A stretch of DNA of 64,000 bases from Escherichia coli (GTDB lineage Bacteria > Pseudomonadota > Gammaproteobacteria > Enterobacterales > Enterobacteriaceae). A program made the translations under genes and the position numbers. Positions 12,770-27,291 of the stretch are shown piece by piece. The DNA is taken from assembly GCF_030013595.1 (NCBI RefSeq), contig NZ_CP122768.1. One strand, written 5' to 3'. Within the stretch, counting starts at the first letter, position 1. Every line of letters starts with the position of its first letter. The notes below the pieces were generated by a model. It had not been told where the DNA came from. It did not search any database and saw only the letters and a list, made by a program, of their open reading frames with translations.

Positions 12770-14269
12770 ATGCTAAATTTATTTGTTGGCCTTGATATAT
12801 ACACAGGGCTTTTGTTATTACTTGCTCTGGCATTTGTGTTGTTCTACGAAGCAATCAATGGTTTTCATGACACGGCGAATGCGGTGGCAACCGTTATTTA
12901 TACTCGTGCCATGCAGCCACAGCTTGCCGTGGTGATGGCGGCATTTTTTAACTTTTTTGGCGTATTGCTAGGCGGACTTAGCGTTGCCTATGCCATTGTC
13001 CATATGTTGCCAACCGATTTGTTGCTGAATATGGGGTCAACTCACGGCCTGGCGATGGTCTTTTCCATGCTGCTGGCGGCGATTATCTGGAACCTGGGAA
13101 CGTGGTTCTTTGGTTTACCGGCCTCCAGTTCGCATACCTTGATTGGTGCGATTATCGGCATCGGTTTAACCAACGCGCTGTTAACCGGCTCATCGGTGAT
13201 GGATGCGTTAAACCTGCGTGAAGTGACCAAAATTTTCTCCTCGCTGATTGTTTCCCCTATCGTCGGCCTGGTCATTGCGGGAGGCCTGATCTTCCTGCTG
13301 CGCCGTTTCTGGAGCGGGACGAAAAAGCGTGACCGTATTCACCGCATTCCGGAAGATCGCAAAAAGAAAAAAGGCAAACGTAAGCCGCCATTCTGGACGC
13401 GTATTGCGCTGATTGTTTCCGCTGCGGGCGTGGCGTTTTCGCACGGCGCGAACGACGGGCAGAAAGGGATCGGCCTGGTGATGCTGGTACTGGTGGGGAT
13501 TGCCCCTGCTGGTTTCGTCGTCAATATGAATGCGTCCGGCTATGAAATTACCCGTACCCGCGATGCCGTCACCAACTTTGAACACTATCTGCAACAGCAT
13601 CCTGAACTGCCGCAGAAGTTGATTGCGATGGAACCTCCATTGCCTGCGGCATCGACTGATGGCACGCAAGTAACGGAGTTTCACTGTCATCCGGCAAATA
13701 CCTTTGATGCGATTGCGCGCGTTAAAACGATGCTGCCAGGCAATATGGAAAGTTACGAGCCGTTAAGCGTGAGTCAGCGCAGCCAGCTGCGCCGCATTAT
13801 GCTGTGCATCTCTGATACCTCCGCGAAGCTGGCGAAACTGCCAGGCGTCAGTAAAGAAGACCAGAACCTGCTGAAAAAACTGCGCAGCGATATGTTAAGC
13901 ACCATTGAGTACGCTCCGGTGTGGATCATCATGGCAGTAGCTCTGGCGCTCGGCATTGGCACCATGATTGGCTGGCGTCGTGTAGCGATGACCATCGGTG
14001 AGAAGATTGGTAAGCGCGGCATGACGTATGCGCAAGGCATGGCGGCACAAATGACGGCGGCAGTGTCTATCGGCCTTGCCAGTTATATTGGGATGCCCGT
14101 CTCCACAACACACGTCCTCTCGTCTGCGGTAGCAGGGACGATGGTGGTGGACGGCGGTGGGTTACAGCGTAAAACGGTAACCAGCATCCTGATGGCGTGG
14201 GTGTTTACTTTACCGGCGGCGATTTTTCTTTCTGGTGGGTTGTACTGGATAGCATTGCAGTTGATTTAA
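12770..14269 (+). CDS. pitB: Low-affinity inorganic phosphate transporter (Pit family)
   Basis: 499-aa polytopic membrane protein with duplicated GxNDGQK-type PHO4 motifs. Confidence 0.9.
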
Positions 14270-14317
14270 CCTTCCTGAAAATGCCCGGTCCTGGCGATCG
14301 GGCATTTCCATTTTTGA

Positions 14318-15010
14318 CTAGTGATAACCACGCGCGGTCATAAAATCCGTAATCGCTTTTTCCGCATCAACCAGCACTTGTTCCAGCGGTTGATTGGCAT
14401 CGATATCAACCAGTTGCGCGCCTCCAAAGGTTAACTGTGGCGTTATGGCTATCTTCCTTTCCAGCGATTCTCTTTTGTGGTCAGGCTTACGCGCGCAGGC
14501 CACGTCCAGATCGACATTGAGTTTGATGACCAGATCGGGCTTATGGCTCGCCATCCAGTGAAACGCTTTACGTTCCTGGCTTGCCAGCCATGAGACAAAA
14601 CGACCACCTTCAACGTTAGGTGGGAACACCGTACCATCGTAAGCACCAGGAATTTGGTCCTGAGGATAACGGTCGGTTAGAACAATTAACCCGCGACGAC
14701 GACAGGCAAGCATATGACGAAAGCGCAGTAAGCGACGGGCGACAAACGCTGTAATTACCAGCGCCGGAACAGGGCCAGGCAATTTTTTTGCTGTTTTCAC
14801 CTGATTTCGTTCAATTGTTTTATGTAAGGATTTTCCCATCAACGGTAATTTTGTCACTGCACGACCGACATTTCCGGCCTGTTTTCCTAAATGAACTCTT
14901 TCGGCAGCACCATATTTTTCGACAACGGTAATGAGATGTTCACACACCGTTGACTTGCCTGAACCATCGCTACCAATAACGGCAATTAATGGAGGTGTTA
15001 TTGACTGCAT
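14318..15010 (-). CDS. yghT: P-loop NTPase/kinase-like protein
   Basis: 230 aa; Walker [11 protein letters not shown] at N-terminus and a DRY-type motif; paralog of the two following ORFs. Confidence 0.75.
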
Positions 15011-15183
15011 GAATATATCCTTTAATTTAAATATCCATTAAAAATATTTATTTGGTTAATATGTTTTTATGAAAGCGTAATTCAGGTCAATGTCACAATT
15101 AACCATTGTCACAATAAGGTTGAACGGATATTCTGAGCACGGACCACGTAATATTCAATACATTATTTGCTGCCGGGTTTTTC

Positions 15184-15897
15184 GTGAATCAACGTAATAT
15201 GTCAATAATTAATTCCACGCCAGTGCGTGTTATTGCCATTGTAGGATGTGATGGTTCAGGTAAATCGACCCTCACGGCAAGCCTGGTAAATGAACTGGCA
15301 GCAACAATGCCAACAGAACACATTTATCTCGGGCAATCGTCCGGGCGAATTGGCGAATGGATTTCACAGCTCCCTGTTATTGGCGCACCTTTTGGGCGTT
15401 ATTTGCGAAGTAAAGCGGCACATGTGCACGAAAAGCCCTTAACACCGCCTGGCAATATTACTGCGCTGGTTATCTATCTGCTTTCCTGCTGGCGGGCGTA
15501 CAAGTTTCGCAAAATGTTGTGTAAAAGCCAGCAAGGCTATCTGCTCATCACCGACCGCTACCCGCAGGTTGAAGTGCCGGGTTTTCGCTTTGATGGCCCG
15601 CAATTGGCAAAAACCACGGGCGGTAACGGTTGGATAAAAATGTTAAGGCAGCGCGAGCTGAAGCTGTACCAATGGATGGCGTCTTATTTGCCCGTATTGT
15701 TGATTCGTCTTGGCATTGATGAACAAACCGCGTTTGCGCGTAAACCTGACCACCAACTGGCAGCGTTACAGGAAAAAATCGCCGTTACGCCGCAACTGAC
15801 ATTCAATGGCGCAAAGATCCTTGAACTGGATGGTCGGCAACCAGCCGATGAAATTATGCAAGCGTCACTACGCGCAATTCACGCCGCGCTTTCCTGA
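15184..15897 (+). CDS. yghS: P-loop NTPase/kinase-like protein
   Basis: 237 aa; Walker A VGCDGSGKST; ITDRYPQ motif. Confidence 0.75.
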   Translation: MNQRNMSIINSTPVRVIAIVGCDGSGKSTLTASLVNELAATMPTEHIYLGQSSGRIGEWISQLPVIGAPFGRYLRSKAAHVHEKPLTPPGNITALVIYLLSCWRAYKFRKMLCKSQQGYLLITDRYPQVEVPGFRFDGPQLAKTTGGNGWIKMLRQRELKLYQWMASYLPVLLIRLGIDEQTAFARKPDHQLAALQEKIAVTPQLTFNGAKILELDGRQPADEIMQASLRAIHAALS

Positions 15898-15928
15898 TCA
15901 CCAAAATGGATAGGGGATGATTTAACGA

Positions 15929-16687
15929 ATGGATGCACTACAAACACAAACTGTTAATAGTACAACCGCGCCGCAGCCCAACTACATTCCGGGGCTGATT
16001 GCGGTGGTCGGGTGTGATGGCACCGGTAAATCCACGCTGACCACCGACCTGGTGAAATCGCTGCAACAACACTGGCAAACCGAGCGGCGCTATCTGGGGC
16101 TGCTCTCCGGCGAAGACGGCGACAAAATCAAACGATTGCCGTTGGTTGGCGTCTGGCTGGAACGGCGACTGGCGGCCAAATCCTCGAAAACCCAAAGCAT
16201 GAAAACCAAATCTCCGGCGCTATGGGCGGCGGTGATTATGTACTGCTTTTCGCTGCGAAGAATGGCGAATCTACGCAAGGTTCAGCGACTGGCGCAAAGT
16301 GGCGTTCTGGTGGTCAGCGATCGCTTCCCGCAGGCTGAAATTTCGGGCTTTTATTATGACGGACCGGGGATTGGCGTCGAACGTGCGACCGGGAAAATCA
16401 GCATGTTTCTGGCGCAGCGCGAACGGCGTTTATACCAACAAATGGCGCAATATCGCCCGGAATTAATTATTCGCCTGGGCATTGATATTGAGACTGCCAT
16501 CTCCCGCAAGCCTGACCATGACTATGCCGAGCTGCAGGACAAAATCGGCGTCATGTCGACGATTGGCTATAACGGCACAAAAATTCTTGAGATTGATTCC
16601 AGAGCGCCCTACAGCGAAGTGCTGGAACAGGCACAGAAGGCGGTTTCTCTGGTTGCCATCGTTTCTGACCGCCGAAGTTTAACTTAA
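15929..16687 (+). CDS. yghR: P-loop NTPase/kinase-like protein
   Basis: 252 aa; Walker A VGCDGTGKST; VSDRFPQ motif. Confidence 0.75.
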   Translation: MDALQTQTVNSTTAPQPNYIPGLIAVVGCDGTGKSTLTTDLVKSLQQHWQTERRYLGLLSGEDGDKIKRLPLVGVWLERRLAAKSSKTQSMKTKSPALWAAVIMYCFSLRRMANLRKVQRLAQSGVLVVSDRFPQAEISGFYYDGPGIGVERATGKISMFLAQRERRLYQQMAQYRPELIIRLGIDIETAISRKPDHDYAELQDKIGVMSTIGYNGTKILEIDSRAPYSEVLEQAQKAVSLVAIVSDRRSLT

Positions 16688-16732
16688 GGCTGGCGGGATA
16701 CTTTTTACTATCAACGATAAGGTCAGGCTGAA

Positions 16733-18082
16733 TTGGCGGGTCTTAACATCAAACATTGGTTTGCAGATGGCGCGTTTCGCACCATTATTCGCAATAGCGC
16801 CTGGTTAGGCTCCAGTAATGTCGTGAGCGCCTTGCTGGGTCTGTTGGCGCTCTCGTGTGCCGGTAAAGGGATGACGCCCGCCATGTTTGGCGTACTGGTG
16901 ATTGTGCAATCGTACGCCAAGTCGATCAGCGATTTTATTAAGTTTCAGACATGGCAGTTGGTGGTGCAGTACGGAACGCCAGCCTTGACCAACAATAATC
17001 CGCAGCAATTTCGCAATGTCGTCTCATTTTCCTTCTCGCTGGATATCGTCAGCGGCGCGGTGGCGATTGTCGGCGGCATTGCCTTACTGCCATTCCTTTC
17101 CCATTCATTAGGTCTGGATGACCAAAGCTTTTGGCTGGCGGCGCTGTATTGCACGCTCATTCCTTCAATGGCTTCCTCCACGCCGACCGGCATTCTGCGT
17201 GCGGTAGATCGCTTCGATCTAATTGCTGTACAGCAGGCGACGAAACCTTTTCTGCGCGCAGCGGGGAGCGTCGTAGCTTGGTATTTTGACTTTGGTTTTG
17301 CGGGTTTTGTTATTGCCTGGTACGTGTCGAATCTGGTTGGCGGCACCATGTACTGGTGGTTTGCCGCGCGCGAATTACGCCGCAGAAATATCCATAACGC
17401 GTTCAAATTGAATCTGTTTGAGTCTGCCCGACACATTAAAGGCGCGTGGAGTTTTGTCTGGTCAACCAACATTGCCCACTCCATCTGGTCGGCACGTAAC
17501 TCGTGCAGCACAGTGTTGGTGGGGATCGTGTTAGGACCCGCTGCCGCCGGGTTATTTAAAATCGCCATGACATTCTTCGACGCCGCCGGAACGCCAGCGG
17601 GTTTACTGGGTAAAAGTTTTTACCCAGAGGTGATGCGTTTAGATCCGCGCACCACCAGACCGTGGTTGTTAGGCGTGAAGTCCGGTTTACTGGCGGGCGG
17701 AATCGGTATTCTGGTGGCGCTCGCGGTGTTGATCGTCGGCAAGCCGCTCATTTCGCTGGTGTTTGGCGTTAAGTATCTCGAAGCGTATGACCTGATTCAG
17801 GTGATGCTGGGCGCAATTGTGATCTCGATGCTGGGCTTCCCACAGGAGTCATTGCTATTGATGGCGGGAAAACAGCGCGCTTTTCTCGTGGCGCAAACCA
17901 TCGCCTCAATCGGCTACATCGTATTGCTGTTCATGTTCTGTCATCTGTTTGGCGTGCTGGGGGCTGCATTTGCTTACTTCGGTGGGCAATGTCTGGATGT
18001 GGTGTTCTCGCTAATTCCGACCTTAAAGGCATTTTTTCAGCGCCATTCCTTGCTTTATAACGCAGCCGGAGAGAAATCCTGA
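16733..18082 (+). CDS. yghQ: Multi-span inner membrane protein, MOP/Wzx-like flippase family (start uncertain)
   Basis: 449-aa hydrophobic ORF; stop TGA overlaps the next ATG (ATGATG at 18079-18084); synteny with yghQ. Confidence 0.7.
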   Translation: MAGLNIKHWFADGAFRTIIRNSAWLGSSNVVSALLGLLALSCAGKGMTPAMFGVLVIVQSYAKSISDFIKFQTWQLVVQYGTPALTNNNPQQFRNVVSFSFSLDIVSGAVAIVGGIALLPFLSHSLGLDDQSFWLAALYCTLIPSMASSTPTGILRAVDRFDLIAVQQATKPFLRAAGSVVAWYFDFGFAGFVIAWYVSNLVGGTMYWWFAARELRRRNIHNAFKLNLFESARHIKGAWSFVWSTNIAHSIWSARNSCSTVLVGIVLGPAAAGLFKIAMTFFDAAGTPAGLLGKSFYPEVMRLDPRTTRPWLLGVKSGLLAGGIGILVALAVLIVGKPLISLVFGVKYLEAYDLIQVMLGAIVISMLGFPQESLLLMAGKQRAFLVAQTIASIGYIVLLFMFCHLFGVLGAAFAYFGGQCLDVVFSLIPTLKAFFQRHSLLYNAAGEKS

Positions 18083-18918
18083 TGATGAGAAAATATTTCC
18101 CGCTTGAGGCGAGCGAGCGTCTATTTGTTGCGATTGAAGAAGATGATGTCGTTGATGCACAGGTCAGTTTGCCGCCGACTATCGCACTAAGTTGTACCAC
18201 CGAAATCATCCATGATAATTACGCGTTATGCCTGAAATTCTGGCTGGATGGTGTTAATCGTCAGGAGCTACTGCGTTTAATCCGCAAACAGGCGAAAGGC
18301 GATGAGCTGACGACAGACGAGCGCAAAAAGTATAAATACATGCGAGCGCGCTACAAGCATCTGCGCTTTGCGCAACGGCTGTATTTAAAGAAGCATCAGG
18401 CCGGATTTTTATTCGGCAAAACGACCGTTTTTTTGGGGCGTTTTCAGGACGGCTTTCGTAACGGTAAGAAAAATATTGTGTCGTATTACGGCAACCTGTT
18501 ACGGGTTTATTTAAGCTCTCCGGTCTGGTCGTTGGTGAACTATTCATTACGCCATAGCCAGTTAGAAAGCGTAAGCGGTTTTATTGCCTATCGGCAAAAG
18601 CAAATGCATACCCTGAAAGAGATAATTGCCAAACCGCGACTAACTGGCAGGGAATTTCATGATGTGCGAAAAATCATCAGCCAGCAGGTTTCTTATTACG
18701 ACACCCTAAGATCGCTTGATCCTGAAAATAAAGAGGCGTTACAGATTTCCCGCTTCCTCGCCGCCATTAATGGCCTGATGGGGGATAAACACGACGACAT
18801 GGTGGCGGATGATATGGAAAACCGCCAGTCGTATGATGCACCGATGGCGCTGGATAGCGATATTCGTCAGCGCTTAGAACTGCTGATTTCGCGTTTCCCA
18901 CTATATCCGGAGCAATAA
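18082..18918 (+). CDS. Hypothetical cytoplasmic protein (278 aa), translationally coupled to yghQ
   Basis: Long ORF with start overlapping the yghQ stop and stop overlapping the next start (TAATG); basic and charged, no signal peptide seen. Confidence 0.55.
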   Translation: MMRKYFPLEASERLFVAIEEDDVVDAQVSLPPTIALSCTTEIIHDNYALCLKFWLDGVNRQELLRLIRKQAKGDELTTDERKKYKYMRARYKHLRFAQRLYLKKHQAGFLFGKTTVFLGRFQDGFRNGKKNIVSYYGNLLRVYLSSPVWSLVNYSLRHSQLESVSGFIAYRQKQMHTLKEIIAKPRLTGREFHDVRKIISQQVSYYDTLRSLDPENKEALQISRFLAAINGLMGDKHDDMVADDMENRQSYDAPMALDSDIRQRLELLISRFPLYPEQ

Positions 18919-19478
18919 TGCCATCTCGTTGGATTTTCGCTCTGATCATCGCACTCTTAGCGCCAGGCGCGGCGGCACACAATTTCGTCACTGGCAAAAC
19001 GGTTACCCCTGTTTATATCCAGGAAGGTGGTGAGCTGCTTCTGAATAGCGATGACGAAATTCACTACCAAAAGTGGAACAGCACACAATTGGCGGGAAAA
19101 GTCCGCATTATTCAGTATATCGCCGGGCGTAAGTCGGCGAAGAAAAAGAACTCACTGTTAATTAAAGCGGTTGAAGCGGCAAACTTTCCACAGGATCGTT
19201 TTCAGCCCACCACCATTGTGAACACCGATGATGCCATCTTTGGTACTGGCTATTTTGTCGTTGGCAAAATCGAAAAAAATAAACGCCGCTATCCGTGGGC
19301 GCAATTCGTTATTGACGGCAATGGACAGGGACGTGTTGCTTGGCGGTTGCCGGAGCAGAGTTCAACCATTCTGGTGCTGAATAAAGCCGGGCAAATTCAG
19401 TGGGCAAAGGACGGCAGCCTGACGCCGGAAGAGGTAGATCATGTCATTGCGCTGGCGCAGAAGCTGATCAATGAATAA
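18918..19478 (+). CDS. Hypothetical secreted/periplasmic protein (186 aa)
   Basis: N-terminal signal peptide MPSRWIFALIIALLAPGAAAHNF (AxA cleavage-type site, no lipobox Cys). Confidence 0.55.
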   Translation: MPSRWIFALIIALLAPGAAAHNFVTGKTVTPVYIQEGGELLLNSDDEIHYQKWNSTQLAGKVRIIQYIAGRKSAKKKNSLLIKAVEAANFPQDRFQPTTIVNTDDAIFGTGYFVVGKIEKNKRRYPWAQFVIDGNGQGRVAWRLPEQSSTILVLNKAGQIQWAKDGSLTPEEVDHVIALAQKLINE

Positions 19479-19508
19479 AAAACTCAAAGGATTGAGGGCA
19501 TTAGTGGG

Positions 19509-20579
19509 ATGAAGCTGGTTGAACACTACATCATGCGTGGTACGCGCCGTCTGGTGCTGATTATCGTCGGTTTTCTGATCTTTATTTTCGCCAGCTACTC
19601 CGCACAGCGTTATCTGACCGAAGCGGCAAATGGGACATTAGCTCTTGATGTTGTGCTGGATATTGTTTTCTACAAGGTGCTGATTGCACTGGAGATGTTG
19701 TTACCTGTTGGACTGTATGTGTCAGTTGGCGTGACGCTAGGGCAGATGTATACCGACTCGGAAATTACCGCTATTTCTGCGGCGGGGGGGAGTCCGGGAC
19801 GCTTGTACAAAGCCGTTCTTTATCTGGCGATACCGCTAAGTATTTTTGTCACCCTTCTGTCGATGTATGGTCGGCCGTGGGCTTATGCGCAGATTTATCA
19901 ACTGGAGCAACAGTCGCAGTCGGAGCTGGATGTTCGCCAGTTGCGGGCAAAGAAATTTAACACTAACGATAACGGACGAATGATCCTTTCGCAGACGGTT
20001 GATCAGGATAATAATCGCCTGACTGACGTGCTGATTTATACTTCTACTGCCAATCGAACCCGTATTTTCCGCGCCCGTTCGGTTGATGTGGTTGACCCAT
20101 CACCCGAGAAACCGACCGTTATGTTGCACAACGGCACTGCCTATCTTCTCGATCATCAGGGGCGTGACGACAACGAACAGATCTACCGTCATCTGCAATT
20201 ACATCTGAATCCGCTGGATCAAAGCCCTAACGTCAAACGCAAAGCGAAATCGGTCACGGAGCTGGCGCGCTCCGTCTTTCCAGCCGATCATGCCGAACTG
20301 CAATGGCGACAAAGCCGTGGCCTGACAGCATTGTTGATGGCGCTGCTGGCCATTTCATTAAGTCGGGTAAAACCGCGGCAAGGGCGATTTTCAACATTAT
20401 TGCCACTGACGTTGCTGTTTATTGCCATTTTTTATGGCGGCGACGTCTGCCGTACGCTGGTGGCTAACGGCGCGATTCCCCTCATTCCTGGTTTGTGGTT
20501 AGTACCCGGACTCATGCTAATGGGCCTGCTGATGCTGGTCGCACGCGACTTCTCTTTGCTGCAGAAATTTTCCCGATGA
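19509..20579 (+). CDS. LptF-like permease (YjgP/YjgQ family) paralog
   Basis: 356 aa; membrane topology and YTDSEITAISAAG segment resemble the LptF/LptG family. Confidence 0.7.
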   Translation: MKLVEHYIMRGTRRLVLIIVGFLIFIFASYSAQRYLTEAANGTLALDVVLDIVFYKVLIALEMLLPVGLYVSVGVTLGQMYTDSEITAISAAGGSPGRLYKAVLYLAIPLSIFVTLLSMYGRPWAYAQIYQLEQQSQSELDVRQLRAKKFNTNDNGRMILSQTVDQDNNRLTDVLIYTSTANRTRIFRARSVDVVDPSPEKPTVMLHNGTAYLLDHQGRDDNEQIYRHLQLHLNPLDQSPNVKRKAKSVTELARSVFPADHAELQWRQSRGLTALLMALLAISLSRVKPRQGRFSTLLPLTLLFIAIFYGGDVCRTLVANGAIPLIPGLWLVPGLMLMGLLMLVARDFSLLQKFSR

Positions 20580-21655
20580 ATGTTTTCAGTCGCTATTTAA
20601 TCCGTCATCTCTTTCTCGGTTTTGCCGCCGCCGCAGGGCTATTGCTGCCGCTTTTTACCACCTTCAACCTGATTAACGAACTGGATGATGTCAGCCCGGG
20701 TGGTTATCGCTGGACTCAGGCGGTGCTGGTGGTGCTGATGACCTTACCGCGCACACTGGTCGAACTTTCGCCGTTTATCGCATTATTGGGAGGGATTGTT
20801 GGCCTGGGGCAGTTATCGAAAAACAGTGAGCTTACCGCCATTCGCAGCACGGGGTTTTCTATCTTCCGTATTGCACTAGTGGCGCTGGTTGCCGGGATAT
20901 TTTGGACTGTTTCGTTAGGCGCGATAGATGAGTGGGTGGCGTCGCCATTGCAGCAACAGGCGCTGCAAATCAAATCGACTGCCACCGCGTTGGGGGAGGA
21001 CGATGACATTACCGGCAATATGCTTTGGGCCAGGCGCGGTAATGAATTTGTGACGGTGAAATCGCTGAACGAGCAGGGCCAGCCTGTGGGCGTGGAGATA
21101 TTTCATTATCGCGACGATCTCTCGCTCGAATCCTACATTTTTGCACGCAGTGCCTCCATTGAAGACGACAAAACGTGGATCCTGCATGGTGTGAATCATA
21201 AAAAATGGTTGAATGGCAAAGAAACGCTGGAAACATCAGATAATCTTGCCTGGCAATCGGCCTTCACCAGTATGAATCTTGAAGAGTTATCGATGCCGGG
21301 AAATACTTTTTCTGTCCGTCAACTTAATCATTACATCCATTATTTGCAGGAAACTGGGCAACCCAGCAGCGAATACCGCCTTGCACTGTGGGAAAAACTG
21401 GGACAACCCATCCTGACTCTGGCGATGATTTTGCTGGCTGTGCCGTTTACCTTTAGTGCCCCGCGTTCGCCTGGGATGGGTAGCCGTCTCGCTGTAGGCG
21501 TCATCGTGGGCTTACTTACCTGGATCAGCTATCAAATCATGGTCAATCTGGGATTGCTATTTGCGTTGAGCGCACCTGTTACCGCGCTCGGTTTACCGGT
21601 AGCGTTTGTGCTGGTGGCGTTGAGCCTGGTGTATTGGTATGACAGACAACATTAA
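20576..21655 (+). CDS. LptG-like permease (YjgP/YjgQ family) paralog
   Basis: Start ATG 20576 overlapping upstream stop (ATGA); 359 aa; N-terminal MNVFSRYLIRHLF typical of LptF/G permeases. Confidence 0.7.
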   Translation: MNVFSRYLIRHLFLGFAAAAGLLLPLFTTFNLINELDDVSPGGYRWTQAVLVVLMTLPRTLVELSPFIALLGGIVGLGQLSKNSELTAIRSTGFSIFRIALVALVAGIFWTVSLGAIDEWVASPLQQQALQIKSTATALGEDDDITGNMLWARRGNEFVTVKSLNEQGQPVGVEIFHYRDDLSLESYIFARSASIEDDKTWILHGVNHKKWLNGKETLETSDNLAWQSAFTSMNLEELSMPGNTFSVRQLNHYIHYLQETGQPSSEYRLALWEKLGQPILTLAMILLAVPFTFSAPRSPGMGSRLAVGVIVGLLTWISYQIMVNLGLLFALSAPVTALGLPVAFVLVALSLVYWYDRQH

Positions 21656-21656
21656 A

Positions 21657-21683
21657 CCCGCCGTGGCGCAACACCACAGCGGG
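21657..21683. terminator. Hairpin between convergent operons (possible bidirectional terminator)
   Basis: cccgccgtgg ... ccacagcggg near-perfect inverted repeat in the 34-nt gap between the LptG-like stop and the oxoamine synthase stop. Confidence 0.4.
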
Positions 21684-21689
21684 CTCACA

Positions 21690-22862
21690 TTACTGCTTCA
21701 GAGTAGCGAACGCTTGAATGATGGCATCAATTTGCTCACGACTGTGGGCAGCGTTTACGCTACAGCGCAGCAGCGTGATGCCTGCAGGCGCGGCAGGTGG
21801 CAGGATAAGATTCACATAAACGCCCAGCGAAATAAGCTCGCGCCAGATGCGTAAACCTTCCTCTTTCGAACCGATTATTACTGGCACTACCGGGCTAATA
21901 TGTGAACTTAACTCATAACCCAGTTTTTGCAGACCGTCATACAGATGGTTGGCATTATCCATCAGCTTTTGCCGCAACTCTGGTTGTGTAGCAATGGTTC
22001 TTAACGACGAGCGCACGGTCGCAATGCAGGACGGAGAAGGAGAGGCGGTAAAAATATACGGGCGGCTGCCGTAGCGCAGCACTTCCATCGCTTCCGAACC
22101 GACAGCAAAACCGCCAATCGAGGCCAGACTTTTACTGAAAGTACCAACGATAATATCCACATCATCTTCAACGCCAACGGCTTCAGCCAGTCCGCGCCCC
22201 GTTGCGCCTAACACGCCAAACGAATGCGCTTCATCGACAATCAAATAACCACCGAGACGACGTTTGATATCAACAATTTCCGCCAGCGGCGCAACGTCAC
22301 CGAGCATACTGTAGATGCCTTCAACGATGATAATCGCCTCTTTTGCCCGTTCACCGAGGCGAACCATGCGCCGTTCCAGATCTTTAGCATCGTTATGGCG
22401 GAAACGAATAATTTCCGCGCCACCGAGAGAACAGGCGTCATAAATACTGGCGTGGCTGTCGGCATCCAGTAACACCACGGCGTTATGGTCGGCAAGTGCG
22501 CTGATGACGCCTAAATTAGCGGTATAACCGGTTGAAAAAACGATAGCGGTAGGGCGATTAAAAAACTCGGCGATCTCTTTCTCTAACGCCAGATGCGGCG
22601 CATAACTGCCGTTTGCCATACGAGAACCGGTGGTGCCGGTGCCTTGGGCCGCTAACGCTGCCTGACCTTCGGCGATGGCATCATGATTAAAGGTTAAACC
22701 GAGATAATTATTGGTCCCGGCCAGAATCACTTTTTTATTGCCGATCCGACCTTCGGTGGCGGAATACACTTCATCAATACAGGTGCCAAACGGTGTTAAC
22801 CCGTTGTCACTAAATTGCAGTCGCTCGCCAGCAAGGCGCGCATATTTATCGTATAGCCCCAT
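21690..22862 (-). CDS. PLP-dependent alpha-oxoamine synthase, serine palmitoyltransferase-like
   Basis: 390 aa; class I/II aminotransferase fold; DEAHSFG and GTFSKSL (PLP-lysine) motifs. Confidence 0.8.
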   Translation of the reverse strand: MGLYDKYARLAGERLQFSDNGLTPFGTCIDEVYSATEGRIGNKKVILAGTNNYLGLTFNHDAIAEGQAALAAQGTGTTGSRMANGSYAPHLALEKEIAEFFNRPTAIVFSTGYTANLGVISALADHNAVVLLDADSHASIYDACSLGGAEIIRFRHNDAKDLERRMVRLGERAKEAIIIVEGIYSMLGDVAPLAEIVDIKRRLGGYLIVDEAHSFGVLGATGRGLAEAVGVEDDVDIIVGTFSKSLASIGGFAVGSEAMEVLRYGSRPYIFTASPSPSCIATVRSSLRTIATQPELRQKLMDNANHLYDGLQKLGYELSSHISPVVPVIIGSKEEGLRIWRELISLGVYVNLILPPAAPAGITLLRCSVNAAHSREQIDAIIQAFATLKQ

Positions 22863-23110
22863 TATTTATTCTCCAGCCATGGAAGTAGTGTTTCCATTAA
22901 TTGCGCAGGGGTTTTGACATCCAGCAGAATATTAATAGGAATGGAAATATCGAATCTGTCTTCCAGCATCATTAAGAGATCCATCACTTTGATCGACTCC
23001 AGGCCAAGATCGTTGACGAGATCGCTGTCGGACTTAATTTCCACACCGTTTTCGACCAAATCCTGTAAACAGGAAAGGATGTAATCCATTACTATTTCAC
23101 GATTTACCAT
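22862..23110 (-). CDS. Acyl carrier protein
   Basis: 82 aa, acidic, with DLGLESIKVMDL phosphopantetheine-attachment-type serine motif. Confidence 0.75.
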   Translation of the reverse strand: MVNREIVMDYILSCLQDLVENGVEIKSDSDLVNDLGLESIKVMDLLMMLEDRFDISIPINILLDVKTPAQLMETLLPWLENK

Positions 23111-23141: not shown

Positions 23142-24056
23142 TCAAAATAGCCCGTTGCGTAATGCGTGTTCCAGGCTAATCCCGGGAAACCAATTAATAT
23201 CTTCAGAAATACGGTTATTACTTGCCGACCAGTCGGCATGAGTTAATTCACGGATTTTCGAACGAGTCAGCATCGGTTCTTTACCCGCCAGACGGCTCAA
23301 CGCGGTACTGATATCCGCAAGGCAGGTGAGTAGCGGCAGAGGAATACCGACCATCCGCACGGAACCACAGCGGACATCGGCAATAAGCTGTTGGACACGT
23401 TGCCAGTCATAGCCTCCGGCGACGCCATCGCATAATTCATAGGTTTGCGTCTGTACAGTTTCGGCGCTTAACCACTGCCCCACGGCTTGCGCGAAATCGG
23501 TGACGTGCAGGAAAGAGAGCTGTGTATCTGGCGCACCAAGTCGTGGCAGTAGGCCGCGCAGCATCCAGTCAAACAGCGGTTTTAACTCTTTATCGCCGGG
23601 ACCATACACGGCTGTCGGGCGAAAAATGCCCAGCGTAATTTCGTCAGCCATTGCGGTCAGTCGTTGTTCGGCGACGTGTTTGGAATTTGCGTACCAGGAG
23701 AGTTCGGGATGGCGCGCCGCCAGCGAAGAGATAAACAGAAAACGTTGGCAAAAGCCGCTCTCTTTTGCCGCTTGCATCAGTCGCAGGCTGCCGTCAACGT
23801 TACAGCGGGTAAAAATCTCTTCTTTGTGCCCGCGCACTTGCCCGGCGCAATGGACCACCGCGCTGGCTCCGGCAACCAGTTCGCTAAGTGAATGAGTATC
23901 TTCCAGAGAACCGCGCACCCAGATGAGATTGTCATTGACGTGAGCGCGGGCAGTACGCGTCAATGCGCGAACGTGAAAGCCGCGGGCGAGCAGGTTATCG
24001 ATAATATATTTACCGATAAACCCGGTAGCGCCCGTCACCGCGACAGTTTGATTCAT
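23142..24056 (-). CDS. NAD(P)-dependent epimerase/dehydratase-family reductase
   Basis: 304 aa; N-terminal Rossmann motif VTGATGFIGKYI. Confidence 0.75.
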   Translation of the reverse strand: MNQTVAVTGATGFIGKYIIDNLLARGFHVRALTRTARAHVNDNLIWVRGSLEDTHSLSELVAGASAVVHCAGQVRGHKEEIFTRCNVDGSLRLMQAAKESGFCQRFLFISSLAARHPELSWYANSKHVAEQRLTAMADEITLGIFRPTAVYGPGDKELKPLFDWMLRGLLPRLGAPDTQLSFLHVTDFAQAVGQWLSAETVQTQTYELCDGVAGGYDWQRVQQLIADVRCGSVRMVGIPLPLLTCLADISTALSRLAGKEPMLTRSKIRELTHADWSASNNRISEDINWFPGISLEHALRNGLF

Positions 24057-25804
24057 GCCAGGGATTCCTGCACATGAAGGCTTGCAGCATAAGCCTTCTG
24101 ATAACGTTTTTTCGCTTCCGCACGGGCAGGCTTGCCGGAGGACGTTCGGGGAATACTGTGGGGCGGCAACAGATCGATAGCCGCGGTCACGCCAAATTCG
24201 CTTTGGATCGGTGCTGCCAGCGCGTGGATAAGCTGCCCGCGACGTTCTTCATCGCTGATCCGACACTGGATCTGCAAAATGATTTTTTCCTGGGCGGTAA
24301 CAAAAGCAATCGCATCGCCAGAATGAATTTCCGGTTCCTGTTCCGCAATATATTCAATATCCTGCGGCCAGATATTACGGCCACGAATAATAATCAGATC
24401 TTTAATGCGCCCGGTGACATACAGATAACCGTCCAGCAGATAACCGAGGTCGCCGGTGTCTAACCAGCCCGTCGCGGCAATCTCGTCTTGTGAAATCTGG
24501 TCGCCAAAGTAACCGCTCATCAGGCTAGGGCCGGAGATGCAAATATGGCCTACCACACGTTCCGCGACAGGTATACCTGCTTCATTGCGGATTTCAATGC
24601 CATGTTCTGGCAACGCTTTACCGCAGTTGACGAAAGTCGATACGGCGCGTGTTTCAGCACCCGGCGCGACGGCTTTGCCCTGATATTCAAGGATGTCGCG
24701 ATCCACTTCGTTAACCACAACCCCGGAGGCTTCATCAGAGAAGCTGACAGCCAGCGCATTTTCTGCCAGTCCGTAGCACGGCATGAACGTTTTATCGTCA
24801 AAGTTAACCTGACGGAAACATTCAGCGAATTGATGGAGTTGTTCTGCGGAGATCGGCTCAGCACCAATACCAGCGACGCGCCAGCAGGATAGATCCAGTT
24901 CAGCGAGATCTTTTTCATTCACGCGGCGCTGGCACAATTCATAGCCAAACGGCGGCGCAACGGAAACGGTGCCGCGATTTTTACTGATCAATTTAAGCCA
25001 TTGCAGAGGACGCATGGCAAAATCCTGAGTGCGCAAATAATCTACTGAGAGCTGCGTGGCGACGGGGGTCAGGAGAAAGCCGACCAGTCCCATATCATGG
25101 TAGAAAGGCAGCCAGGAGACGCAGCGGTCGCCAGGGCGTAATTTAATGCCATCGTGGCTTATAGCACGTAGATTAGCCATCACTTCGCGATGGGTGATAA
25201 TGACGCCACGGGGAAAACGGGTGCTGCCGGAGGTGTACTGGAGGTAGGCGATATCGTTCGGAACTGGATGCTGGAGTGCAACATCGGCTTCCGGTAATGC
25301 CTTAAACCAGGCGTGGCTTAAAACATGTAATTCGGGGTTGTTGTTATGCGTCGCGGCATTGACCAGCGGTAACCACTCATCACCAGTGATAATGGCTGCG
25401 GGCTGGCAACTTGTCAGTAAACCCTGCAGTTTGGCGCTCCAGGAATCCCGCTGACCGACGCCCATTGGAATCGCCAACGGGACGGCGACTAAGCCGGCAT
25501 ACTGGCAGGAAAAAAAAGCCTCTACGAACCCGCTACTGGTTTCGGCAATCAGCGCCACGCGATCGCCTTTTTTCAGGTTCAGCGATAACAATCGCTTCGC
25601 ACCAGCTTCGGCACGCGCTTTTAACGTCTGATATTCCAGTTGATCTTCAAGTTGGCAACGTCTGTCATAAAAATTCATTCCGGCGCTACTCAGAGCGGCG
25701 TAGTCCAAAGCATCAACCAGCGTTGGAAAATCGGCATAGCGCATAGGTAGGGAATGCGTAAAGATTTTATTAGACATATACACCACGAAAAAATTGGATA
25801 TCAA
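24053..25804 (-). CDS. Fatty acyl-AMP ligase / acyl-ACP synthetase (AMP-binding family)
   Basis: 583 aa; AMP-binding motif YLQYTSGSTRFPRGV; start may be at a downstream Met. Confidence 0.8.
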   Translation of the reverse strand: MISNFFVVYMSNKIFTHSLPMRYADFPTLVDALDYAALSSAGMNFYDRRCQLEDQLEYQTLKARAEAGAKRLLSLNLKKGDRVALIAETSSGFVEAFFSCQYAGLVAVPLAIPMGVGQRDSWSAKLQGLLTSCQPAAIITGDEWLPLVNAATHNNNPELHVLSHAWFKALPEADVALQHPVPNDIAYLQYTSGSTRFPRGVIITHREVMANLRAISHDGIKLRPGDRCVSWLPFYHDMGLVGFLLTPVATQLSVDYLRTQDFAMRPLQWLKLISKNRGTVSVAPPFGYELCQRRVNEKDLAELDLSCWRVAGIGAEPISAEQLHQFAECFRQVNFDDKTFMPCYGLAENALAVSFSDEASGVVVNEVDRDILEYQGKAVAPGAETRAVSTFVNCGKALPEHGIEIRNEAGIPVAERVVGHICISGPSLMSGYFGDQISQDEIAATGWLDTGDLGYLLDGYLYVTGRIKDLIIIRGRNIWPQDIEYIAEQEPEIHSGDAIAFVTAQEKIILQIQCRISDEERRGQLIHALAAPIQSEFGVTAAIDLLPPHSIPRTSSGKPARAEAKKRYQKAYAASLHVQESLA

Positions 25805-26148: not shown

Positions 26149-27291
26149 ATGGAATGCGATCTGCTGATGATTAAAATTGAAAAAGTAATTAATAAAAATG
26201 ACCTTAAGGCATTTATCGCTTTTCCGTCATCACTTTATCCCGACGATCCAAACTGGATACCCCCTTTATTCATTGAACGCAACGAGCATTTGTCTGCGAA
26301 AAATCCGGGGACGGACCATATCATCTGGCAGGCGTGGGTGGCAAAAAAAGCGGGGCAGATAGTCGGGCGTATTACCGCGCAAATAGATACCTTGCACCGC
26401 GAGCGTTACGGCAAAGATACCGGTCATTTCGGCATGATTGACGCCATTGATGATCCGCAGGTTTTTGCCGCGTTGTTTGGCGCAGCGGAAGCGTGGTTGA
26501 AGTCACAAGGTGCAAGTAAGATCAGCGGGCCTTTCAGCCTGAATATCAATCAGGAAAGCGGATTACTGATTGAAGGTTTTGACACACCACCCTGTGCGAT
26601 GATGCCACACGGCAAACCGTGGTATGCCGCGCATATTGAACAACTGGGTTATCACAAAGGCATTGATTTACTGGCGTGGTGGATGCAGCGAACCGATCTC
26701 ACGTTCTCTCCGGCGCTAAAAAAACTGATGGATCAGGTGCGCAAAAAGGTGACCATTCGCTGCATCAATCGCCAGCGGTTTGCCGAAGAGATGCAGATCC
26801 TGCGTGAGATTTTCAACTCCGGCTGGCAGCACAACTGGGGATTTGTGCCGTTTACCGAACATGAATTCGCGACCATGGGCGATCAACTTAAATATCTGGT
26901 GCCGGACGATATGATCTACATCGCTGAGATTGATTCTGCACCCTGCGCGTTTATTGTCGGCTTGCCAAACATCAACGAGGCGATTGCCGATCTGAACGGA
27001 TCGCTCTTTCCCTTCGGCTGGGCAAAATTGCTGTGGCGTTTAAAAGTCAGCGGTGTGCGAACTGCGCGAGTACCGCTGATGGGCGTGCGGGACGAGTATC
27101 TGTTTAGCCGCATCGGCCCGGTGATTGCGCTGTTATTGATTGAAGCCTTACGCGATCCGTTTGCCCGCCGGAAGATCGATGCGCTGGAGATGTCATGGAT
27201 CCTCGAAACCAATACAGGCATGAATAACATGCTGGAACGCATTGGGGCGGAGCCGTACAAGCGTTACCGATTGTATGAAAAGCAGATTTGA
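26149..27291 (+). CDS. yghO: Acetyltransferase-fold (GNAT-like) protein; putative N-acyltransferase (intact here)
   Basis: 380-aa ORF at the yghO position next to glcC; fold assignment from reading the translation, not searched. Confidence 0.6.
   Translation: MECDLLMIKIEKVINKNDLKAFIAFPSSLYPDDPNWIPPLFIERNEHLSAKNPGTDHIIWQAWVAKKAGQIVGRITAQIDTLHRERYGKDTGHFGMIDAIDDPQVFAALFGAAEAWLKSQGASKISGPFSLNINQESGLLIEGFDTPPCAMMPHGKPWYAAHIEQLGYHKGIDLLAWWMQRTDLTFSPALKKLMDQVRKKVTIRCINRQRFAEEMQILREIFNSGWQHNWGFVPFTEHEFATMGDQLKYLVPDDMIYIAEIDSAPCAFIVGLPNINEAIADLNGSLFPFGWAKLLWRLKVSGVRTARVPLMGVRDEYLFSRIGPVIALLLIEALRDPFARRKIDALEMSWILETNTGMNNMLERIGAEPYKRYRLYEKQI

Follow-up and report, generated by a model that had tools for sequence, protein, structure and literature searches.

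In Caulobacter, anionic sphingolipids can partly substitute for lipopolysaccharide, affect polymyxin sensitivity and contribute to virulence. CpgB, the ceramide kinase of this bacterium, is of the DAGK/LCB5 type with a GGDG motif (PMC10331486), and its LptF2/LptG2 permeases are needed for sphingolipid export, for which they use the housekeeping LptB (10.64898/2026.04.12.717747). In Escherichia coli B, five dihydroceramide-synthesis genes, aasR, cerR, acpR, spt and yghO, have been described, and biochemical activity has been demonstrated for Spt, AcpR and AasR (PMC9386255). The locus of E. coli UTI89 was drawn in the LptF2/LptG2 preprint (10.64898/2026.04.12.717747). Here we analysed yghT, yghS and yghR, three paralogous kinase genes in a 64,000-nucleotide stretch of E. 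coli DNA (contig NZ_CP122768.1, assembly GCF_030013595.1), which as a whole is called the window. We consider it slightly better than an even chance (about 55%), judging from sequences and models, that the proteins YghT, YghS and YghR serve the cryptic ceramide (sphingolipid) locus of E. coli as its head-group phosphorylation module.

In E. coli, yghR, yghS and yghT belong to the genes that still carry the label 'putative ATP-binding protein', and their RefSeq (PGAP) product names are 'dTMP kinase' and 'nucleoside/nucleotide kinase family protein'. An earlier sequence-only reading of the window had described them as three related P-loop kinase genes. The open reading frames lie where it had placed them, and their names and boundaries agree with RefSeq annotation of E. 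coli NZ_CM149870, which is 99.9% identical to the window over region 14000-19500. The layout was also as described: yghT has the opposite orientation, and the tandem pair yghS-yghR lies directly upstream of yghQ. Pairwise alignment of the paralogs, which had been proposed as a check, gave 34-39% identity along the entire proteins and 54 invariant columns, far above chance. The Walker A motifs are GSDGSGKST in YghT, GCDGSGKST in YghS and GCDGTGKST in YghR; the three strings had been quoted correctly, but in an order different from that of the gene names. The DR[YF]PQ motif is present as DRYPQ in YghT and YghS and as DRFPQ in YghR, and a third motif common to all of them, RKPDH, was absent from the earlier reading. 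The three kinases are predicted to be soluble, with a membrane segment in none of them, and all are strongly basic (isoelectric point, pI, 9.6-9.8).

The assignment to P-loop kinases of the nucleoside-monophosphate-kinase type was borne out. Thymidylate kinases (Tmk) were the nearest fold and profile matches, and the model of YghS (predicted local distance difference test score, pLDDT, 85.7) has the thymidylate-kinase fold with P-loop, DRX motif and LID. Strong homology to a characterised nucleotide kinase, which the sequence-only reading had named as evidence against itself, was not found. The similarity is remote, the three kinases scoring 25.1, 25.6 and 32.0 bits with TIGR00041 (cut-off 83.25) and 20.7, 18.4 and 26.7 bits with PF02223 (cut-off 27), and structure and Protein Data Bank (PDB) profile searches found no close solved structure for them.

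In Tmk, residues R39, R78, T105, Y108 and Q109 have roles in binding deoxythymidine monophosphate (dTMP). The kinases keep the P-loop (Tmk E12 = D23), the DRX motif (D99-R100 = D124-R125), one LID arginine (R186) and the counterparts of R78 and Y108. R39 is replaced by G50 (invariant), T105 by G133 and Q109 by D137 (invariant), and a basic insertion of ~30 residues, of low model confidence, lies between helices 2 and 3 in the acceptor lobe. The housekeeping tmk (b1098) sits elsewhere in E. coli K-12. Because the curated cut-offs are missed, the three substrate residues are replaced and the organism has its own tmk elsewhere, we rejected the function of a genuine dTMP kinase; on sequence and model grounds, YghRST are thymidylate-kinase-superfamily members with a rebuilt acceptor site, despite their RefSeq names. 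It is accordingly very improbable that they act as true (deoxy)nucleoside monophosphate kinases supplying nucleotides to the neighbouring pathway. The best fold and profile match, the retained R78 and Y108 counterparts and the PGAP names would fit such a role, but the low scores, the replaced residues, the large insertion and the presence of a canonical tmk do not, and neither does the retention of three copies beside lipid genes in many lineages. A role in anti-phage defence was also rejected, since the PADLOC matches were weak and nearly all limited to the P-loop. As a separate observation, the 2487-aa protein P0262 matches the kinase profile in 39 separate short P-loop stretches and is apparently a repetitive P-loop protein.

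To place the paralogs among bacteria, 100,044 species genomes were scanned once, which gave 79 loci in other genomes, and the window proteins were mapped onto these loci to define the groups T, S and R. They are three separate orthologous groups, with mean identities of 57-60% within and 35-41% between groups, and they span Gamma-, Beta- and Alphaproteobacteria. The groups are held by Enterobacterales (Escherichia, Citrobacter, Hafnia, Serratia, Erwinia, Pantoea, Rahnella, Rosenbergiella and others), Xanthomonadales (Dyella, Rhodanobacter, Luteibacter), Halieaceae and Betaproteobacteria (Methylotenera, Rhodocyclaceae, Nitrotoga), and a fused kinase version was found in an Acetobacteraceae genome. 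In a neighbour-joining bootstrap tree (Poisson distance, Tmk as outgroup), the S clade and the R clade each received 98% support and the split of S/R from T and Tmk 97%, with T as the paralog nearest Tmk. Of the tandem triplication with one inverted copy that had been proposed, the paralogy and the layout stood, but a recent tandem event did not: the three-way orthology and the tree show that the triplication is ancient. Of the 66 other loci with yghS, 64 have yghR next to it.

K27, D124, R125, R186, K187, D189 and H190 were invariant across all 138 aligned T, S and R sequences. Because these catalytic residues are invariant, none of the three gives the impression of an inactive subunit, and all of them are apparently catalytically intact. 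The position after the invariant G50 differs between the groups and is conserved within each, being Lys (T), Gln (S) or Leu (R). In Tmk the equivalent loop binds the acceptor phosphate. This K/Q/L pattern fits three different acceptor specificities. The suggestion in the sequence-only reading that the kinases differ in specificity is thus plausible, given the separate conservation of the groups and the difference at the acceptor-side loop.

The 'lipid/export block' that had been noticed next to the kinases is real, and it is more specifically the E. coli sphingolipid (ceramide) locus (PMC9386255). Coordinates of its features are collected in Table 1. From yghS through yghR, yghQ, hyp278, the ytfJ-like gene and lptF2 to lptG2, neighbouring genes are separated by at most 45 bp or have overlapping stop and start codons, and they form a putative operon ending at the terminator-like hairpin behind lptG2. 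The ytfJ-like gene belongs to the locus in Enterobacterales only. On the other side, pitB (phosphate transporter, 12770-14269) is convergent with yghT; this adjacency was seen in 10 of the 79 loci (Escherichia, Citrobacter, Pseudocitrobacter, Hafnia) and is probably incidental, with pitB outside the module.

Table 1. Kinase genes and neighbouring features of the ceramide locus (positions in the window)
Feature	Position	Strand	Description
yghT	14318-15010	-	230 aa, pI 9.8; thymidylate-kinase-superfamily P-loop kinase
yghT/yghS divergent intergenic region	15011-15183	.	173 bp, 30% GC
yghS	15184-15897	+	237 aa, GTG start, pI 9.7; paralogous kinase
yghR	15929-16687	+	252 aa, pI 9.6; paralogous kinase
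yghQ	16733-18082	+	MOP (Wzx-type) flippase-like membrane protein, 449 aa
hyp278	18082-18918	+	uncharacterised 278-aa protein
ytfJ-like	18918-19478	+	annotated 'YtfJ family protein', between hyp278 and lptF2
lptF2	19509-20579	+	LptF-like permease
lptG2	20576-21655	+	LptG-like permease; last gene of putative yghS-to-lptG2 operon
hairpin	21653-21687	-	16-bp stem, terminator-like, between convergent lptG2 and spt
spt	21690-22862	-	serine palmitoyltransferase (PMC9386255)
acpR	22862-23110	-	specialised acyl carrier protein (PMC9386255)
cerR/epi	23142-24056	-	NAD-dependent reductase of ceramide synthesis (PMC9386255)
aasR	24053-25777	-	specialised acyl-ACP (acyl carrier protein) synthetase, annotated fatty acyl-AMP ligase (PMC9386255)
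yghO	26149-27291	+	N-acyltransferase of dihydroceramide synthesis (aca/bCerS) (PMC9386255)

The locus encodes LptF/G paralogs and no LptB paralog, which could suggest that the kinases are ATPase subunits powering the LptF2/LptG2 permeases. We regard this as extremely unlikely. A motif search found the ATP-binding cassette (ABC) signature [LFY]SGG[QEK] in none of YghT, YghS and YghR; Q-loop and H-loop are also missing, and the proteins have a kinase fold with LID and DRX. Their Pfam ABC_tran matches cover the P-loop only (profile positions 12-44 of 137) at E 0.004-0.026, below threshold. An ABC ATPase for LptF2/G2 was ruled out on these motifs and the fold. Moreover, the Caulobacter permeases bind the housekeeping LptB (10.64898/2026.04.12.717747), and many loci pair the kinases with RND export genes and lack LptF2/G2. 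The sequence-only reading had likewise held that the kinases are unlikely to be the missing transporter ATPase, on the lack of ABC motifs, and the use of LptB in Caulobacter now agrees with it.

Linkage of the kinases to lipid genes was counted over 51 loci of other genomes with full 10-kb flanks. Together with yghT, both yghS and yghR were present in 46 of these loci, hyp278 in 44, at least one ceramide-synthesis gene in 41, spt in 40, yghQ in 32 and lptF2/lptG2 in 28. A lack of co-occurrence with the lipid genes had been named beforehand as a result that would count against the earlier view; the association was strong, as the 41 of 51 loci with a ceramide gene show. In 17 enteric loci, and not in the E. 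coli window, a gene for a DgkA-like protein (prokaryotic diacylglycerol kinase) lies between yghO and yghR (for example L020 7715-8071, 119 aa), and it is a candidate for a dedicated ceramide kinase. Outside Enterobacterales, two PAP2 lipid-phosphatase families flank yghT and an LpxO-like hydroxylase flanks yghR, and further genes of the locus frequently encode a GT4 glycosyltransferase and an RND/OEP/adaptor export system, the latter looking like an alternative export route to LptF2/G2. In Beta- and Gammaproteobacteria of this kind, yghT is followed by two PAP2 genes and the OEP/RND/adaptor efflux genes (L060 10699-20681, L056 10809-20372, L061 10702-20682). His_Phos_1 and NUDIX genes near the kinases were only sporadic.

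Gene fusions linked the kinases to each other and to membrane transport. In Oecophyllibacter saccharovorans (L081 9836-11317), a 493-aa in-frame fusion joins a T-type and an S/R-type domain with both motif sets intact. A hyp278 homolog (hhalign E 1.9e-54) lies convergent to it, and two GT4 genes and a gene for a His_Phos_1 phosphatase are close by. In the public annotation this fusion is called as 438 aa, with a start that is too late and misses the first P-loop. Tandem kinase fusions were also found in other genomes. A search of 1.84 billion representative proteins gave 2937 relatives at E<=0.001. Beyond the YghRST groups, many of the proteins among the matches listed (E ~1e-51 to 1e-35) are ~500 aa long with the kinase domain C-terminal. 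In some distant relatives the kinase is joined to a MOP flippase (P0379, P0381) or to a GT4 glycosyltransferase (P0324), and others have a ~260-aa N-terminal domain weakly similar to NTP_transf_5. One ~500-aa relative lies inside a Wzx/Wzy-type polysaccharide cluster (L085 4351-6596), where a 243-aa degenerate paralog without the DRX motif adjoins it and recalls the regulatory subunit of the Sulfolobus polyphosphate kinase PPK3. Since relatives are fused to flippases, the kinase-flippase link is older than the association with ceramide. These fusions speak for an acceptor that is anchored in the membrane and receives its phosphate before it is flipped.

Alternatively, the substrate of the kinases could be a soluble precursor of the head group (a sugar, a glycerate-like acid or another small molecule), which a different enzyme later transfers onto ceramide. 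Such a scheme would parallel the cytosolic cytidine diphosphate-glycerate branch of Caulobacter with its soluble activation step by CpgD (PMC12275187), and it would suit soluble proteins without predicted membrane segments and the GT4, GT2 and carbamoyltransferase genes of some loci. We consider it unlikely: the E. coli locus has no recognisable transferase to attach the precursor, relatives are directly fused to MOP flippases, and the high pI of the kinases fits an anionic membrane surface.

We therefore favour, with the confidence given at the outset, a head-group phosphorylation module that acts on the lipid itself. In this scheme, AasR, AcpR, Spt, CerR and YghO would make ceramide at the cytoplasmic face of the inner membrane. 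Each of the soluble, basic kinases would then catalyse a different ATP-dependent phosphoryl transfer onto the head of membrane-anchored ceramide or ceramide phosphate, probably working together with the co-encoded CHAD-like helical protein hyp278. The anionic lipid product would be flipped by the MOP-type YghQ, extracted by LptF2/LptG2 and delivered to the outer membrane.

Several observations weigh against this scheme. No ceramide gene was found within 10 kb in 10 of the 51 full-flank loci, and in 5 of the 51 yghT occurs without yghS or yghR within 10 kb; the yghT-only genomes are those of Nitrotoga and related metagenome-assembled genomes. Because of these ten loci and the five in which yghT is alone, ceramide may not be the acceptor in every case. 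Several non-enteric loci additionally hold GT4, GT2 and carbamoyltransferase genes, and in these a sugar could be the acceptor. A catalytic base or an acceptor-binding residue was assigned in none of YghRST. In one virulence screen, knockouts of yghQ, yghR, yghS and yghT in K-12, which lacks the ceramide genes, had no clear effect. No paper that we found, with most subscription journals outside our coverage, reports an E. coli sphingolipid or a function of yghR, yghS or yghT, and within the same coverage nothing relevant was found that links thymidylate-kinase-like genes to sphingolipid clusters.

The partner protein hyp278 gave no Pfam, NCBIfam or PDB sequence or profile matches. Its model is very confident (pLDDT 95.1) and consists of 11 helices, arranged as two four-helix bundles that form one domain, as in CHAD domains. 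Pfam CHAD (PF05235) was matched below threshold by 10 of 42 hyp278 homologs (best E 6.7e-4); two of these matches, inspected individually, scored 17.4 and 15.6 bits vs a cut-off of 25.6 and covered the last ~55 residues only. One homolog is named CHAD domain-containing protein in UniRef. A Foldseek search of hyp278 against the PDB found nothing significant (best E 0.16, YgiF ranked 21), and hhalign was negative both for YgiF against the hyp278 family profile and for an internal repeat between the two halves of hyp278 (E 0.11). The model makes a CHAD-like fold likely. The invariant residues of hyp278 are R60, R88, K92, H93, R95, H105, H193, R196 and H237, which together with a pI of 9.3 are compatible with a polyphosphate-binding surface, and hyp278 may bind a phosphate chain. 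Separately, with the hyp278 profile the metagenomic proteins P0121-P0126 (561-564 aa) reached about twice the scores of single-domain homologs, as would be expected if the CHAD-like domain were duplicated in tandem.

A kinase set beside a CHAD-like protein could also be a PPK3-like hetero-oligomeric polyphosphate kinase, which would make or consume free inorganic polyphosphate bound by the CHAD-like partner and be only loosely linked to the lipid genes. E. coli already has ppk and ppx. The DRX arginine is present in all three kinases, but the regulatory subunit of PPK3 has lost it (PMC12995831). Moreover, none of ppx, sixA and pst was found within the 64-kb window, and the conserved neighbours are instead ceramide, flippase and Lpt genes. 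The structure 2plr (S. tokodaii ST1543) was a top structural match of the YghS model, but the YghRST sequences are nearer canonical Tmk, and ST1543 was not among the profile hits at E<=0.01. We judge this alternative to be quite improbable.

Within the favoured lipid head-group module, a more specific version can be put forward only tentatively, and we think it rather doubtful: the three kinases could work in series and extend ceramide-1-phosphate to ceramide di-, tri- or tetraphosphate, a lipid-anchored oligophosphate. The idea arises because the acceptor of the ancestral enzyme is itself a phosphate, as thymidylate kinase phosphorylates a phosphate. The CHAD-like neighbour and the likeness to PPK3 also hint at a phosphate chain on the lipid. 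The P-loop Asp of Tmk contacts the 3'-OH, and by analogy the P-O-C1-C2-C3-OH unit of ceramide-1-phosphate might mimic P-O-C5'-C4'-C3'-OH of dTMP. Ceramide-1-phosphate would come from one of the kinases, from the housekeeping DgkA or from the DgkA-like gene of the 17 enteric loci. While the phosphoanhydride chain grows, the CHAD-like protein would keep hold of it. The MOP flippase would flip the product and LptF2/G2 would export it; in other taxa, the two PAP2 phosphatases beside yghT might trim it. If true, this lipid would be a new membrane-lipid class, and thymidylate kinase would have been recruited to phosphate-chain chemistry a second time, independently of PPK3.

The locus is differently preserved among E. 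coli strains. Of 5426 complete E. coli genomes, 4786 have a match to the kinase region and 4124 contain most of the larger locus. In K-12 (NC_000913.3 3129043-3132408), an IS5 element lies between yghO and a truncated yghQ (355 vs 449 aa), and hyp278, the ytfJ-like gene, lptF2, lptG2, spt, acpR, cerR and aasR are missing. By this comparison of sequences, an IS5-associated deletion has removed the K-12 ceramide genes, and yghRST are orphan remnants in the reference strain. The kinases were thus orphaned in the strain used for nearly all E. coli genetics, and no function has ever been found for yghRST probably because K-12 lost the adjacent ceramide genes.

Expression of the locus may also be restricted. 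A sigma-70-like site lies at 15106-15134 (+) in the yghT/yghS intergenic region. It is overlapped by a pair of copies of TGTCACAAT (15091-15099 and 15107-15115), 16 bp apart, which are the only two in the 64-kb window and may be a regulator-binding site. The two divergent promoter regions of the locus have a GC content of 30-32%; a search for a motif shared by these AT-rich regions gave only short AT-rich 9-mers, which are not meaningful. K-12 yghS was induced by SlyA overexpression and flagged as H-NS-bound (PMC5797941). The SlyA/H-NS data and the low GC content of the promoters are consistent with silencing under laboratory conditions.

Placement in a sphingolipid locus gives yghRST a testable role. 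What is most likely new here is a thymidylate-kinase-superfamily enzyme recruited to a lipid pathway, for a head-group step not yet described. The locus points to a second, non-homologous route to an anionic bacterial sphingolipid beside the phosphoglycerate pathway of Caulobacter, and a so far hidden lipid of this kind in E. coli, Serratia, Citrobacter, Hafnia, Erwinia and Pantoea would have a bearing on the biology of the envelope and on susceptibility to antibiotics.

Among known systems, YghRST by analogy most likely work like CpgA-D of the Caulobacter ceramide (di)phosphoglycerate pathway. In both cases a head-group module is located in a ceramide locus and would lead to an anionic outer-membrane lipid exported by LptF2/G2. 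No cpg homologs were seen at the E. coli locus. CpgB is DAGK-type and unrelated to P-loop kinases, whereas YghRST have a P-loop fold and gave no DAGK-type Pfam match; homology to CpgB was therefore ruled out by its DAGK/LCB5 type with GGDG motif (PMC10331486), and YghRST would be an alternative, non-homologous cassette. A likeness also exists to LpxK, KdkA and WaaP/WaaY, which phosphorylate a membrane-anchored glycolipid at the cytoplasmic face before flipping and Lpt export, and LpxT shows that lipid-linked diphosphates occur in the E. coli envelope. YghRST differ from Tmk in falling below every curated threshold, in the ~30-residue basic insertion and a pI of 9.6-9.8, and in being encoded as three copies inside a lipid locus. 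PPK3 of Sulfolobus (Saci_2019/Saci_2020) resembles the E. coli genes in having adjacent thymidylate-kinase-superfamily paralogs, beside a CHAD-type protein (PMC12995831) of which hyp278 is a candidate counterpart, and in the recruitment of such paralogs to a non-nucleotide, phosphate-rich acceptor, which is proposed for YghRST. The CHAD likeness is limited, as E. coli hyp278 itself gives no Pfam match to PF05235. The two systems differ in that YghRST are three paralogs rather than two, R125 of the DRX motif is invariant in 138 T, S and R sequences but missing from the PPK3 regulatory subunit (PMC12995831), ST1543 has no sequence-level match to YghRST at E<=0.01, and the neighbours of YghRST are ceramide, flippase and Lpt genes instead of ppx, sixA and pst.

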